Of a stretch of 64,000 bases of DNA, positions 12,420-17,505 are shown piece by piece. Below the pieces are notes generated by a model. The model was not told the origin of the DNA. It saw nothing but the letters and a program-made list of their open reading frames with translations, and did not search any database. How positions within the stretch are numbered: the stretch's first letter is position 1; the number at the start of each line of letters is the position of its first letter. The stretch is from the IMG/VR virus record IMGVR_UViG_3300046460_000097. The stretch is one strand, 5' to 3'. Position numbers and translations under genes: made by a program. The DNA is from a virus (Duplodnaviria > Caudoviricetes).

Positions 12420-12887
12420 ATGAATGTACAGAAGTACTTTAACCAGGACCCTGATGAATTCATAGGGTCCTTTGAGCCTATTACAGTTTCCATGCAGAGC
12501 CGCAACAATAAGGCCACCATCGAACTGGGGTTGGTTAAGGATAATAACAAGTTGTGTTTTGTTATCGGAAAGCGGTTACAGAGTGAAGGATCACTCCTAA
12601 TTCTTGATCAAGTGCGTCTGTCACTTGCATCCCAGCGAACGTTCGAAGATCGCCCATCTCATTGGTCTACTTGTAGTTTCTACCGCCATGAGTTCCTGCG
12701 TAGAGCGTTCGAAGATTTTGTTAATGCTTCACCCTTTGTATCTTTTATAAGAGCCAACGTCAACCCATTGGCCGTATCACAACTGTTTGCCAATCTAAGG
12801 GACATTAGTCCTAAACTAATAAGCTTTCAGCTAGGGAATCATCATGAGAAAGGAAGAAGTCATTGCGAGGTACCAAGAGCTGGTTAA
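12420..12887 (+). CDS. Hypothetical protein (~155 aa)
   Basis: Fills the gap in a co-oriented operon; start uncertain (TTG 12411 or ATG 12420). Confidence 0.55.
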   Translation: MNVQKYFNQDPDEFIGSFEPITVSMQSRNNKATIELGLVKDNNKLCFVIGKRLQSEGSLLILDQVRLSLASQRTFEDRPSHWSTCSFYRHEFLRRAFEDFVNASPFVSFIRANVNPLAVSQLFANLRDISPKLISFQLGNHHEKGRSHCEVPRAG

Positions 12888-13287
12888 GGAGCTTGTTGAG
12901 CCCGCACACAACGTAGTACTGAGCGCCGGATCTGCTTCGGTGATGATGGGTCTCCGCGATGAGACTGACGACTTGGATGCAGATGTACTGCCCGGTGTAT
13001 TCAAATGGGCCTGCGCCGTCAAGAAAGCAACCGTCATCGTTGAAGAGAATGTAAACGATCGGATCAAGTATTCCGATAAGGTTGATTTGCACATCCTCGA
13101 TGAAGATCGTGGGCGTGTTTGTATCGAGGGGGTCTGGGTCTACAGTCCCCAAGAGCTGTTGAATCAAAAGCGTTATCTGATGCGCATGCCTAACCGCCGT
13201 GCAGAGAAGATGCTACGTGACCAGTTGGAAGTATCTCAGCTGGAAGAACTTATCCGTAAACCTAAATTTACTGCGAAGGCCGTTTAA
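12844..13287 (+). CDS. Putative nucleotidyltransferase (Pol-beta superfamily, DUF6036-like), paralog 1
   Basis: hGS...DhD motif in LSAGSASVMMGLRDETDDLDADV; C-terminal R..K..RD. Confidence 0.6.
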   Translation: MRKEEVIARYQELVKELVEPAHNVVLSAGSASVMMGLRDETDDLDADVLPGVFKWACAVKKATVIVEENVNDRIKYSDKVDLHILDEDRGRVCIEGVWVYSPQELLNQKRYLMRMPNRRAEKMLRDQLEVSQLEELIRKPKFTAKAV

Positions 13288-13758
13288 ATGGAAGACCTCG
13301 TTGAACTCCGTAAGCGAGTTATGTTTAAAGGCAAAGAAAAAGTAGCTGACGCTATTCGTATCTTCGCTGACAACTGGAACATCCCCCTCGATCAAGTCTG
13401 TGTCGGTGGTGGTGCTGCGTTGGTGCTCATGGGTATCCGTGAAGAAACTCACGATCTGAACCTGTGGGTCGATTCGCCGTACTTCGAGAAGCTAGCGGAA
13501 GAAATGAAGACCATCAACCACCCAATGGTTGACACTGTCATCATGATGCCGAACGTATTCACCTACGTGCGCCAGCGCAATCGCTACTTCGGTCACGACG
13601 TGATCGGCGGTATTCAGGTCTTCAACGTTCTGGCACTGATTGTCCAGAAGCGCGGTGGCTATGCTGAACCTGCCCGTCCGGTAGCGAAGCGTAAACAAGA
13701 TCGAATGGACTTGCGCATCCTCGCCGAGATCCATGCAACACGTAACAAAGTGGCTTAG
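13288..13758 (+). CDS. Nucleotidyltransferase-like protein, paralog 2, second catalytic Asp replaced by Asn
   Basis: VGGGAALVLMGIREETHDLNLWV; starts immediately after the paralog 1 stop (TAAATG). Confidence 0.55.
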   Translation: MEDLVELRKRVMFKGKEKVADAIRIFADNWNIPLDQVCVGGGAALVLMGIREETHDLNLWVDSPYFEKLAEEMKTINHPMVDTVIMMPNVFTYVRQRNRYFGHDVIGGIQVFNVLALIVQKRGGYAEPARPVAKRKQDRMDLRILAEIHATRNKVA

Positions 13759-13838: not shown

Positions 13839-15854
13839 ATGGAAATCCATTCGAATCCTACCGTTTATGCTGAAATGAAAAAGCTAAACGATGACATCCT
13901 GTATCACAATGATCTTTACCACAACAAAGACACTCACGTTATTCCCCACAGTGAGTTCGATGCCATGGTAGAACGCTTTGATGAACTGGCTGAGATCTAT
14001 CCGGATATCGCCAAGTTGTTTGTTCATCAACAGAAGGCGGTTCCACTGCACGACCTGACTAACGAAGGGCTGGAGATCGTTGTATTCGATTCTCCCATGC
14101 TCAGTCTGAAGAAGGCTTTAACGTGGCCGCAGTTTGATGCTTGGCTCAACAAGTTTCCTAGCGCCGTCTATCTCGCTATTGTTTACGAGAAGAAGATTGA
14201 CGGGTTGGCGCTTGAGATCCGTTACCTCGACTGGAAACTGCACAAGATCTTTACCCGGGGTGATGGCCTAAAGGGCGAGGACGTTACCCATTCATTCCGT
14301 CTGTTCGGTAACATTCCTGCCGAGATCCCAAAGGTAGTTGGTGGTGGGTTACTGGTTCCGGGAGATCTGGTGGTTCGTGGTGAAGGGTGCATTACTATCC
14401 ATGATTTCCTGCGTTACAACGAGACTGCGGTTAAACCTGCAGCTAATCCTCGTAATGCGGTAAGTGGCTGGGTGCGTGCGCTAGAGAAGAACCAGAACAA
14501 AGACGTGGTCGGCATCCTGCAGTTCTACACCTATTGGTCTAACACCAGTATGGGAGCTGAAGATTACAACGACCTGCGTAGTTGCTGGGAGGCTATTGGC
14601 TTCTACCCTGCGCCGTTATCTTGTCTTGAAGACATCCGTAACGACTACCAAGACACTATCCTGCCAACTGATGGGATTGTGGGCAAGGTGCGTAGCTTCA
14701 CCGTGCAGGAAGCGCTCGGCTACACTAACAAGCACCCTAACTGGGCGATTGCGTACAAGTTCCCAGATGAAGAGAAGGAATCCCCTCTCGAACGTGTTAT
14801 CTGGCAAACCTCTATGACGGGCCGTGTTGTACCCGTCGTGGAATACACCCCTATTGAGTTAGGTGGTGTAACTTGTCGTCGGGCCAATCTGGATAACTAC
14901 CACCAATTCATGGCGTTGGAACTTCATGAAGATTCTGTACTGGGTATTACGCGTAACGGGAATGTTATTCCTCGTGTTAGCCGTGTTGTCGATCGTGGGT
15001 TTGGTAGTCGCCTTAAAGCTCCTGTGGAATGCCCTAGCTGCAATTCCAAGCTGGAGCTGAAGACAGGGAAGACTAGCACTGACCTCGTCTGTAAGAACGT
15101 CATAGGCTGTTCTAGCCAGCTTCTTAACCGCTGTGTATCGTTGGTTAACAAACGTTGCCTCGATATCGACGGGTTAGGACCGGTGCAGTTGGGTGAACTG
15201 ATTACCCACAAGAAGATCAGCAGTACCGCAGACCTCTTCATGATGACTCCTCAGCATGTGGGGGATAAACTGTACGCAGAGATTCAAGGCAGTCGTATTC
15301 AGTTCCTGCATCGTGCTATCAAGGCGCTGGGGCTTCCTGGGATCGACCTGATCCGTGCGAAGAAGATTGCCAAGGCCATGAGTCATATCAAGGTTGATGG
15401 TGACGTGGACAGCCGCGGGGACATGTTGCACTTCATCGGTAATGTAGACAACCTCGTAAAGATCCCGGGTATCTCTACCGGTATCGCACTTCCTATCGCG
15501 AAAACGTTGGAAGACAATGCTTTCTGGAAGAACGCCCTTAACGTATTGATGTACTTGGACATTCTGCCGGAAGGTGACACCGATAACGATCTCAAGGTTT
15601 GTATAACGGGGGAGCTGGGACTATCTCGTGACGAACTGATTGATTACTTTGCCGATCAAGGTATCGAATTGGTGGACAACCTCACCAAGAGCTGTGTCGC
15701 TTTGATCGTGGGTGAGAAGCCCGGAAACGTCAAGCTGTTAAAGGCAACTGAGCTAGGTATCTTTATGGTGAATTCTGATAAAGCATCTAGCATCGATAAC
15801 CTGATCGAACAGATCAAGAACCACAACCAAGGGGACGTGCATGACAACCGCTAA
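13839..15854 (+). CDS. ligA: NAD-dependent DNA ligase
   Basis: YEKKIDGLA adenylation motif, TRGDG, DGIVGK, WAIAYKF, OB domain, Zn finger CPSC...C...C, HhH motifs, BRCT (VCITGEL). Confidence 0.95.
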   Translation: MEIHSNPTVYAEMKKLNDDILYHNDLYHNKDTHVIPHSEFDAMVERFDELAEIYPDIAKLFVHQQKAVPLHDLTNEGLEIVVFDSPMLSLKKALTWPQFDAWLNKFPSAVYLAIVYEKKIDGLALEIRYLDWKLHKIFTRGDGLKGEDVTHSFRLFGNIPAEIPKVVGGGLLVPGDLVVRGEGCITIHDFLRYNETAVKPAANPRNAVSGWVRALEKNQNKDVVGILQFYTYWSNTSMGAEDYNDLRSCWEAIGFYPAPLSCLEDIRNDYQDTILPTDGIVGKVRSFTVQEALGYTNKHPNWAIAYKFPDEEKESPLERVIWQTSMTGRVVPVVEYTPIELGGVTCRRANLDNYHQFMALELHEDSVLGITRNGNVIPRVSRVVDRGFGSRLKAPVECPSCNSKLELKTGKTSTDLVCKNVIGCSSQLLNRCVSLVNKRCLDIDGLGPVQLGELITHKKISSTADLFMMTPQHVGDKLYAEIQGSRIQFLHRAIKALGLPGIDLIRAKKIAKAMSHIKVDGDVDSRGDMLHFIGNVDNLVKIPGISTGIALPIAKTLEDNAFWKNALNVLMYLDILPEGDTDNDLKVCITGELGLSRDELIDYFADQGIELVDNLTKSCVALIVGEKPGNVKLLKATELGIFMVNSDKASSIDNLIEQIKNHNQGDVHDNR

Positions 15855-17505
15855 GACCAAGAAGCTGGACCATAACGAAGTCCAGAAGCAAACCACCGCC
15901 GCTGTTAAAGCGCTACCGAAAGACGTCAAGGAAGAACTGGATGAACTCGTTACAAAGAACATCGAAGCCAACAAAGGCAAAGCAGTGGCCAAAGCGGTTG
16001 CAGCGGCTGAAGAATCTCTCACACAAAGTGAAGATGTTTCTAAAGGTGGCAGTAAGCTGATCATGGAAACGGGTCTGACTTCGGTCATCCACATTACTCC
16101 GGCACAGGCACGTATGCTGACCGCCAACTCTGGCGACGTACTGCGTGAAATTAACAAGAAGACCGGCGTGTCGTTGGAAGTGGCTGAAGACGGCGAAGTG
16201 AAGATCAAGGGTGACACGGCAAAAGCGATTGATCTGGCGCACTCGTTTATCTTGGACGTGATAACCACTCCTGGTGAACTGGTTGCTACTCTTGATAGCG
16301 GTACCGGTAAGGTCATCGACTACCGTCTGAAGCGCCCGCTGACGTTTGAAGAACGCGAGCTGCTGCCAAAGCCATGGGTGATCATTGACGGTGTCCAGAT
16401 CGAACCCAAGGCGACCGGTCTCAAGTTGTCTGGCGGGCGTATTGTCCCTAACCAAACACCGTTGACCTATGAGCGTGACGTCTACATCAACTACTACGGC
16501 GCTGACTCCAAAGACCTGACATTCACTCAGTTCGCGGTGGTCATCAACGGCCGTACTGTTACCGTCATGCTCGATGAGAAGTCGACTCTGGAAGTCACCA
16601 ACACCTACTTCGGTAGCGAACGGTCTGACTCCGATGCAGCAATCCAGCGTAATGCACTGGTGACCCTCATCAACTCCAGCAGCCGTAACGACAGCTTCTT
16701 CGGCGACAACCTGTTGATCGGTCTCGAGTCGACGTATAGCTCGTACACCGATGCCTGCGTCAGCAAGACCCTCACTGGCAGCTACCGCGCCAAGACACCG
16801 CCGCCGATCGTTGACCTGCCGTGGGACTCTCGTGGTGCCAGCTTTGGCACGGACCGTAATAAGGTCTCTCACACTACTTTCCGCCAAGCGTTGATCGAAG
16901 GCACCATCTTGGCATCTGGTGTGTACAAGAATGTGCAGATCTTTGCGTCGACTATCAAGAGTGAGCATTCCGTTACGTTTGAGAACGTGAGCATGGACGG
17001 TGACACTATCAAGGCGAAGTCTATCGTCATGAAGCACACCACCACCAAGGGCTTCCGTTTGATGACCGATGGGCCGGTGTTGATTGTTAACACTCGCTTT
17101 AAAGATGTTGCTCCGGTTCTCCCTGGGCTGTACATGCCGAACAAGTTCTGTGCGTTGCAGATCGATTTGCCGCTCGGTCAGTTGTCCATGTACCGTGAAA
17201 GCAAAGAAAAGATTTGCCTGACGGTCAACTCGTACATTTCGGTCGTGATGAATCTGGACGATGACTTCGACACGATCGAAGAGAAGGTTGCCGAGCTGAT
17301 GACCAAGTCTGCCGGCGGCTGGGGGAATACTTCCGGCATCGATCCGAAAGACAACGATCCGCTGACCCGCAATCTGATGATATATGTGGTGGCTGCTATC
17401 CGCTCCCGCATCAAGGTCATCAAACTGTTGGACAGTGCTATCAAGGTGGCTGAAACCATCACCGCAACCGGTCGTGACGACTACTACGATCAACAACCGT
17501 TCTGA
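15841..17505 (+). CDS. Hypothetical protein with a PNPase-type KH domain and a C-terminal domain shared with the next gene
   Basis: aa ~79-142 (IHITPAQARMLTANSGDVLREINKKTGVSLEVAEDGEVKIKG) align by eye to the PNPase KH domain; NKFC and SR(I/L)xV motifs are shared with 17573..18559. Confidence 0.65.
   Translation: MTTAKTKKLDHNEVQKQTTAAVKALPKDVKEELDELVTKNIEANKGKAVAKAVAAAEESLTQSEDVSKGGSKLIMETGLTSVIHITPAQARMLTANSGDVLREINKKTGVSLEVAEDGEVKIKGDTAKAIDLAHSFILDVITTPGELVATLDSGTGKVIDYRLKRPLTFEERELLPKPWVIIDGVQIEPKATGLKLSGGRIVPNQTPLTYERDVYINYYGADSKDLTFTQFAVVINGRTVTVMLDEKSTLEVTNTYFGSERSDSDAAIQRNALVTLINSSSRNDSFFGDNLLIGLESTYSSYTDACVSKTLTGSYRAKTPPPIVDLPWDSRGASFGTDRNKVSHTTFRQALIEGTILASGVYKNVQIFASTIKSEHSVTFENVSMDGDTIKAKSIVMKHTTTKGFRLMTDGPVLIVNTRFKDVAPVLPGLYMPNKFCALQIDLPLGQLSMYRESKEKICLTVNSYISVVMNLDDDFDTIEEKVAELMTKSAGGWGNTSGIDPKDNDPLTRNLMIYVVAAIRSRIKVIKLLDSAIKVAETITATGRDDYYDQQPF

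Follow-up and report, generated by a model that had tools for sequence, protein, structure and literature searches.

KH domains are textbook binders of single-stranded nucleic acid. The question raised by the locus described here is what such a domain might do in a phage protein when the loop that grips the nucleic acid has degenerated. The domain is part of a 554-amino-acid protein encoded in a 64,000-nucleotide stretch of viral DNA (Duplodnaviria; Caudoviricetes; IMG/VR record IMGVR_UViG_3300046460_000097), the whole of which we call the window. The virus is a giant phage from soil and a relative of Pseudomonas phage EL. An earlier reading of these letters alone (the sequence-only reading) had described a PNPase-type KH domain with a broken GxxG loop, fused into a phage-specific protein and captured from the host for contacts with proteins, e.g., PNPase or the degradosome. 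Our preferred reading, to which we assign a probability of about 0.5, is that a PNPase KH domain was inserted into a protein of the phage EL gp123 family, lost its glycine clasp and may now serve as an adaptor with a new binding role. The loss of RNA clamping and the adaptor role are the parts that we infer; the KH identity, the affinity to PNPase, the degeneration of the loop, the lineage-specific insertion and the selection on the gene are supported directly by the observations that follow.

A PNPase-like KH domain

The peptide that the sequence-only reading assigned to a KH domain at positions 16075-16266 translates exactly as quoted there, and corresponds to residues 79-142 of the 554-amino-acid open reading frame. 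Pfam KH_1 (PF00013) scores the whole protein at 21.9 bits over residues 82-138, where the curated cut-off is 21.5 bits. The isolated segment scores 27.0 bits (E=3.9e-6), and the copy of the gene in virus record G001 scores 25.8 bits. By these scores, the KH_1 match is real but marginal. A profile built only from PNPases (103 KH-S1 regions) gives the phage KH domain 36.2 bits, compared with 0.16 +/- 1.66 bits and a maximum of 11.8 bits among 500 shuffles, and thereby places it ~10 bits above the generic Pfam model. No second KH domain was found in a six-frame scan of the 64-kb window.

A model of residues 77-161 was predicted by AlphaFold, using an alignment of 16 diverse PNPase KH sequences. 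In this prediction, strand β1 lies at residues 79-84, helix α1 at 87-95, helix α2 at 97-108, strand β2 at 111-114, strand β' at 119-124 and helix α' at 127-142, i.e., the β-α-α-β-β-α topology of type I KH domains, with predicted local distance difference test (pLDDT) values of 80-89. When the model was compared with the PDB using Foldseek, all top matches were type I KH domains (probability 1.00), and the closest superpositions were with the KH domains of Coxiella and Caulobacter PNPase (4nbq and 4am3; root-mean-square deviation 1.6 Å over 64-65 columns). A full-length model, for which the alignment held a single KH homolog, has the order α1-α2-β-β-α at a pLDDT of ~76-78, with β1 missing. Judged from profiles and predicted structure, residues 79-142 are a type I KH fold.

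The affinity of this fold to PNPase was apparent in several comparisons. When the segment is compared with the sequences of solved structures, each of its top eight matches is a PNPase KH domain (best E=0.004), with GKGG of the Escherichia coli protein aligned to ANSG of the phage. The two PNPase models of NCBIfam align to the segment through their KH part (positions 547-609 of 683; E=1e-6), while models of Rrp4 and archaeal KH proteins match the segment more weakly, at ~5e-4. When 1.8 billion representatives were searched exhaustively with phmmer, only one match came from outside the phage family. This PNPase KH fragment has, in its KH region, 73-89% identity to alphaproteobacterial PNPases; to the phage sequence, it is 31% identical over 104 residues. 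We also searched whole genomes in six frames, with residues 69-170 as the query (E<=0.01). In each of three named or traceable genomes, the PNPase gene was the sole significant match. In a phylum-wide sample, 260 of 301 genomes were matched, nearly always once; among the matches listed, the open frames are ~700-850 amino acids long, which is the size of PNPase, and other KH proteins were not picked. Together with the PNPase-only profile and the Foldseek superpositions, these results bear out the description of the domain as PNPase-type.

The phage protein itself is not a PNPase. The models TIGR03591 and PRK11824 are matched only at positions 547-616, with 20-27 bits where their cut-offs are 471-525, and the two RNase PH domains of a full-length PNPase are absent. 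Local alignments made with MAFFT and HMMER run past the KH domain to residue ~160, but this tail adds 2.5 bits, a gain that was equalled or exceeded by 40 of 500 shuffles. An S1 remnant following the KH domain is therefore unsupported, given a gain near the shuffle level and a stretch that is predicted to be disordered. We also rejected LTFEERELLPKPWVIID as the last strand of an S1 domain, because in relatives that have no KH domain the body begins with this very stretch, which is conserved.

The phage KH domain is at most ~35% identical to that of any PNPase (25-35% over ~65 residues). In a maximum-likelihood tree of 40 KH sequences, its terminal branch is 6.8 changes per column long, compared with a median of 0.19, and it joins the tree on the unresolved backbone rather than within the well-supported GKGG-type clade. 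The tree places the phage copy in no PNPase clade. The best-scoring PNPases share a sequence type with named alphaproteobacterial loci, which is not a reliable pointer to the donor. The composition of the KH segment equals that of the gene (GC content 0.531 versus 0.528; GC content at third codon positions, GC3, 0.656 versus 0.661), and therefore holds no trace of a recent transfer.

As a separate observation, the searches uncovered a metagenomic protein of 227 amino acids (P0048), in which an alphaproteobacterial-type PNPase KH region is joined to Sigma70_r4 (Pfam, 1.5e-17). The join may be genuine, or else a chimera of the assembly.

The loop and the RNA-facing side

All 123 PNPases that we aligned have a G-x-G-G loop at this place (103 of the 103 first recovered, and 20 of 20 taken from lower in the ranking). 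The loop reads GTGG, GSGG, GKGG or, rarely, something else, and mostly stands within V-I-G-x-G-G-K. The phage counterpart is L-T-A-N-S-G-D, in which the first and third glycines are gone and the last (G98) is kept, the isoleucine before the loop is threonine, and the lysine after it is aspartate. The change from GKGG to ANSG that the sequence-only reading had described is thus confirmed against the whole set, and the GXXG clasp of type I KH domains is absent from the phage copy, where ANSG aligns to GKGG, GSGG or GTGG.

The phage domain keeps 13 of the 34 columns that are at least 95% conserved in the PNPase set, although this set is rich in Alphaproteobacteria, such that some of the conserved columns are specific to that lineage (the G-x-G-G result is general). 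The residues kept are R91, G98, R102, E103, I104, K107, T108, G109, D117, G118, K121, A133 and I137, mostly in α2, β2, β' and α'. The losses cluster in β1, α1 and the loop (I80T, E81S, D88A, K89Q, I90A, V93L, I94T, G95A, G97S and K99D), and most of those outside the loop fall in strand 1 and helix 1, which form the RNA-contacting side.

Published work gives these positions a functional meaning. In human PNPase, the first glycine of the loop adopts backbone angles that are barred to other residues, and the mutation G622D impairs RNA binding (PMC3351181). In Caulobacter PNPase, the serine and glycine inside GSGG touch the RNA backbone, and a glycine-to-aspartate change in the E. coli enzyme lowers affinity, partly via charge repulsion (PMC3376730). 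According to a 2025 survey, nucleic-acid binding has not been demonstrated for KH folds that lack GXXG, mutation of the first glycine should abolish binding, and contacts to the bases come from helix 1 (PMC12127562). The first KH domain of KHNYN (KH1), which is without GxxG, does not bind RNA (PMC11997328). This literature agrees with the premise of the sequence-only reading that KH domains need GxxG to bind nucleic acids. By analogy with these cases, the phage domain has probably lost the canonical KH grip on single-stranded nucleic acid. Such a loss of RNA clamping is likely because GxGG has become ANSG, because K99 has become aspartate, and because most of the conserved residues of helix 1 are lost.

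Insertion into the EL gp123 family

The rest of the protein belongs to a family of jumbo phages. In a tblastn search of 50,697 phage records, the protein matched Elvirus genomes only, at ~22% identity and over the C-terminal two-thirds only. The homolog in phage EL is gp123 (YP_418156; 435 amino acids; hypothetical), with a BLASTP E-value of 2e-12; family member P0003 matches the body at 1e-72. The exhaustive phmmer search found 47 other family clusters, all of which align only from residue ~166-180 on. The description of the protein as phage-specific therefore holds, in that relatives of the part outside the KH domain occur only in EL-like jumbo phages and metagenomic contigs. PHROGs assigns the protein to no family, neither it nor Pfam has a model of the EL gp123 family, and we found nothing relevant in the literature on EL gp123 or on KH domains in jumbo phages.

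All or nearly all of the 47 relatives of the body begin with a similar Lys-rich peptide (MT/S-x-x-K-x-KK). After it comes a low-complexity stretch, rich in K, E, A and P, that is variable and spans 40-150 residues. This N-terminus could, by its sequence, be a localisation or nucleic-acid-binding tail. In the window protein, it continues into predicted helices at residues 11-22, 27-41 and 47-61 (full-length model). When the window protein is aligned with its four nearest relatives, the KH domain and two disordered linkers fill the variable stretch of the family, and the KH module lies between the shared N-terminal region and the start of the body (LT.EE..LPKPWV). The KH module makes the window protein 70-120 residues longer than its relatives without a KH domain.

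The domain appears to be confined to one lineage. A 218-kb contig and virus record G001 each carry a copy of the gene that is 99% identical. In a scan of IMG/VR, the KH domain occurred only in the near-identical record G001, and a word-based search for longer proteins with the KH segment returned only the 99% copy. Among 49 sequences, Pfam KH_1 matched only the window protein and the PNPase fragment mentioned above. EL gp123 has no Pfam match, and KH_1 matches nothing in the entire EL genome at E<=0.1. A tblastn search of the same phage records with the KH segment gave only a chance-level match (E=0.9). The KH domain is also absent from all of the 47 other family clusters and from a paralog of the body that is encoded in tandem. 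Because of this absence from the clusters, EL gp123, the phage records and the paralog, the distribution is best explained by a gain, not a loss; as judged from these sequences, a single lineage-specific insertion is far more parsimonious than repeated loss. The part of the sequence-only reading that speaks of capture is therefore well founded. However, an origin from the host in the narrow sense is unproven, given the low identity, the long branch and the phage-like composition.

Between the window and G001 copies, the gene has 19 synonymous and 4 nonsynonymous codon differences, and the KH domain has 3 and 0, respectively. The gene is clearly under purifying selection. The KH module itself is probably under purifying selection as well, although three changes are too few for certainty.

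Architecture of the body and neighbouring genes

In the predicted model, the body has short strands every 5-7 residues (residues ~340-470), followed by long helices at 476-541. When compared with the PDB, the family profile finds designed "beta1" repeats, MfpA (1.1e-4), McbG-like proteins (2.7e-3) and QnrB1 (0.025). In VIA-align, the body scores alike against pentapeptide-repeat, autotransporter and pectate-lyase solenoids (Z 5-6.5). Pfam lists no pentapeptide family (PF00805 clan) at E<=1 to 10, whether the query is the protein or its body, P0003 or the paralog. We read the body as a pentapeptide-repeat-like β-solenoid, which is a statement about a modelled fold class only, and not about function; by analogy, a DNA-mimic role is conceivable. 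A Foldseek search of the PDB with the whole model found nothing at E<=0.001, and a feature search of the ESM Atlas with the body gave scores of at most 0.80, which are at chance level and dominated by the KH domain. A prediction of self-association for two copies of residues 167-554 scored 0.26, where the mark is 0.42, and is evidence neither for nor against.

The coordinates of the gene, its parts and adjacent features are given in Table 1.

Table 1. Features of the KH-bearing gene and its surroundings (positions in the window).
Feature	Positions	Strand	Basis and remarks
NAD-dependent DNA ligase	13839-15854	+	Pfam DNA_ligase_aden 2.9e-37, OB 5.6e-13, BRCT 1.2e-6
AAGGGG ribosome-binding site	15829-15834	+	Read from the sequence; 6 nt upstream of ATG, within ligase frame
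KH-bearing gene	15841-17505	+	Open reading frame list; 554 aa; EL gp123-family protein with KH insertion
Family-wide N-terminus, aa 1-61	15841-16023	+	Lys-rich start MTxxKxKK, then predicted helices
Linker before KH, aa 62-78	16024-16074	+	Predicted disordered; pLDDT <50 for residues 60-85 (full-length model)
PNPase-like type I KH domain, aa 79-142	16075-16266	+	Profiles, genome searches, predicted fold
Degenerate GxxG loop A95-N96-S97-G98, then D99	16123-16134	+	Alignments to PNPases
Linker after KH, aa 143-166	16267-16338	+	Predicted disordered, pLDDT <50
Family body, aa 167-554	16339-17502	+	Common to EL gp123, P0003 and 45 other clusters
Central β-solenoid of body, ~aa 276-434	16666-17142	+	Model and family profile
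Long C-terminal helices of body, aa 476-541	17266-17463	+	Model
Tandem paralog of body, 331 aa	17564-18559	+	BLASTP E=8e-10

The last 14 nt of the ligase gene, at its 3' end, are also the first 14 nt of the KH-bearing gene, and the ribosome-binding site inside the ligase frame suggests, as read from the sequence, that translation of the KH-bearing gene is coupled to that of the ligase. In phage EL, gp123 directly follows the NAD ligase gp122 and precedes genes for an RNase H, a DHH phosphoesterase and a 2H-type protein; the window has the same order. The succession of ligase, family member and RNase H is also found in one Elvirus isolate and three metagenomic relatives, and the family gene always stands between the other two. 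Three relatives lie on jumbo-phage contigs (up to 225 kb) that encode, in this order, an SbcC-like protein, two small paralogs, the ligase, the family member, RNase H and Acb1. In jumbo-phage relatives, a gene of 344-359 amino acids sometimes sits between the family member and RNase H. Two metagenomic relatives have genes of this kind in the slot of the tandem paralog, which EL and the phage of P0004 do not. The tandem paralog in the window starts where the body starts, its residue 6 aligning with residue 175 of the KH-bearing protein, and has neither the Lys-rich N-terminus nor the KH domain.

Two further observations concern this region. Upstream of the ligase, at 12844-13758 (+), are two adjacent small paralogs of phrog_12854 (147 and 156 amino acids), which occupy the same place in relatives. 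In addition, an open frame of 527 amino acids at 15913-17496 (-) runs antisense to nearly the whole KH-bearing gene. It is most likely a shadow open reading frame of a frame with high third-position GC (GC3 0.66), because homology and the pattern of synonymous and nonsynonymous differences favour the plus strand.

What the module might do

Under the preferred reading, a fragment encoding a bacterial PNPase KH domain would have been inserted into the flexible, variable N-terminal linker of an EL gp123-family protein. The copy keeps the KH fold and its core, has lost the glycine clasp and most of the conserved residues of helix 1, and has gained the acidic D99. The module would no longer clamp single-stranded RNA as canonical KH domains do; tethered to the rest of the protein, it would instead bind a partner protein or a non-canonical ligand. 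It would thereby give this one phage lineage's version of a conserved protein an extra contact. It is important to note that several points weigh against this reading. Alanine, asparagine and serine are small or polar, which might still let the altered loop come near a phosphate; R102 and K121, which are invariant in PNPases, are retained. The model of the KH domain leans towards the PNPase fold, since its alignment was based on PNPases, and the evidence for selection within the KH domain consists of three substitutions only. The context of ligase, RNase H and SbcC-like genes suits nucleic-acid binding equally well.

We ranked this reading together with four others that are not strictly exclusive of it or of each other; in descending order, the others are a nucleic-acid tether, a passenger, a decoy and an origin outside PNPase. 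The tether is possible, if doubtful: the KH domain would still bind single-stranded RNA or DNA, weakly or non-canonically, and attach the protein to nucleic acid, with RNA primers or flaps in lagging-strand processing as candidate targets in view of the ligase and RNase H neighbours. The conserved place between these two genes, with an SbcC-like gene nearby, would suit such a role, as would the retention of R102, K121, the last glycine of the loop and the α2-β2 core. PNPase loops themselves often have no basic residues (GSGG, GTGG), and the Lys-rich N-terminus of the family could add affinity for nucleic acid. However, the first glycine, whose angles are open to glycine only, has become alanine, the flanking lysine has become aspartate, and helix 1 is heavily substituted. 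The third glycine, which in Caulobacter PNPase makes an amide-to-phosphate contact, has become serine, and nucleic-acid binding has not yet been shown for any KH fold without GXXG (PMC12127562). That the KH domain is a passenger, decaying in a tolerant linker without a function of its own, seems unlikely to us. Its setting between disordered linkers, where the family varies most, would fit this idea, as would its extremely long branch, the loss of 21 of the 34 conserved positions, and its occurrence in a single lineage. On the other hand, the open frame and the residues that determine the fold are intact, and the fold is confidently predicted; the counts of 3 synonymous and 0 nonsynonymous differences in the KH domain and 19 and 4 in the gene speak for its maintenance; and the losses are gathered on one face rather than evenly spread.

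The sequence-only reading gave as an example a contact with PNPase or the degradosome, for which we found no support. RNase E docks on the face of the PNPase ring that is opposite to KH and S1 (PMC3376730), and because of this the KH copy is not an obvious handle on the degradosome. We regard a decoy that mimics the PNPase KH domain in order to engage PNPase, Hfq or the degradosome as improbable, even though the ancestry is specifically that of PNPase and the same phage has a second host-derived peptide (EF-Tu). PNPase KH domains do touch each other around the RNA entry pore, but these contacts are described as a few weak salt bridges (PMC3376730). The titles of PDB entries include PNPase-Hfq-RNA complexes (7ogk, 7ogm), yet a domain on such a long branch, with ~35% identity or less to any PNPase, would be a poor mimic of a specific host surface. 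It is likewise improbable that the resemblance to PNPase is superficial and the domain comes from some other KH protein or from an old KH lineage of phages. The marginal Pfam score, the placement in no PNPase clade and a similarity that does not demonstrably reach S1 would all fit that case. However, the matches listed from the genome sample were PNPase-sized and not NusA, Era, KhpA or genes of similar size; the PNPase-only profile and the NCBIfam PNPase models outscore the generic and the Rrp4 or archaeal KH models, respectively; and the sole match outside the family among 1.8 billion representatives is a PNPase KH fragment.

The module can be compared with several known systems. With the KH domains of bacterial PNPases (4am3, 4nbq, 6qh2, 7ogk), the phage module shares the type I β-α-α-β-β-α fold and all of the kept residues from R102 onwards, which lie in α2-β2-β'-α'. 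Unlike PNPase, the phage protein lacks an RNase PH core and a demonstrable S1 domain, and has A-N-S-G for G-x-G-G and aspartate for lysine; its KH domain is set in a β-solenoid protein, whereas that of PNPase stands at the mouth of an exoribonuclease ring. The Rrp4 and Rrp40 caps and the KH1 domains of KHNYN and N4BP1 have likewise kept the KH fold and lost the clasp, and are treated as structural or protein-binding modules (PMC3351181, PMC11997328, PMC12127562). These proteins are eukaryotic or archaeal, with no sequence kinship to the phage domain beyond the fold. In addition, the phage domain keeps the last glycine and its two helices are predicted to be separate, whereas those of KHNYN KH1 are fused by a proline kink. 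The other EL gp123-family proteins resemble the window protein in their body, their position relative to ligase and RNase H, and their Lys-rich N-terminus, and differ in having no KH domain. Pentapeptide-repeat proteins (MfpA, Qnr, McbG/AlbG, Rfr) resemble the body in having strands every ~5-7 residues (Z 5-6.5), but the phage body has additional N-terminal β and C-terminal helical parts, and the scores allow us to claim only a shared solenoid arrangement.

To our knowledge, KH domains that have kept the fold and lost the clasp are few, and mostly eukaryotic. The phage KH domain resembles this small set but arose independently, inside a phage protein. Phages are already known to capture domains, and KH domains to degenerate; what is new is their combination, with a traceable PNPase ancestry, and the family in which it is found. 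The PNPase ancestry, the 47 relatives and the paralog that have no KH domain, and the substitutions on one face make the locus a tidy natural experiment in domain repurposing. A more far-reaching idea is that the captured KH domain has become a new kind of targeting module that does not bind RNA any more. Carried on a solenoid resembling DNA mimics, whose gene is coupled to those of the phage ligase and RNase H, it would recruit or block a host factor, e.g., a nucleic-acid enzyme, PNPase or RNA decay linked to Hfq, as part of a wider reuse of host fragments that includes the EF-Tu peptide. We consider this rather unlikely, but if true, it would be the first phage weapon or adaptor made from a disabled host RNA-decay domain. 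More generally, should the module have a host target, a new phage-host interface would result; if it has none, the insertion would be a modest case of domain accretion in one uncultured lineage. In either case, it points to an unstudied family that EL-like jumbo phages encode between ligase and RNase H, and whose predicted solenoid resembles the DNA-mimicking pentapeptide-repeat proteins.

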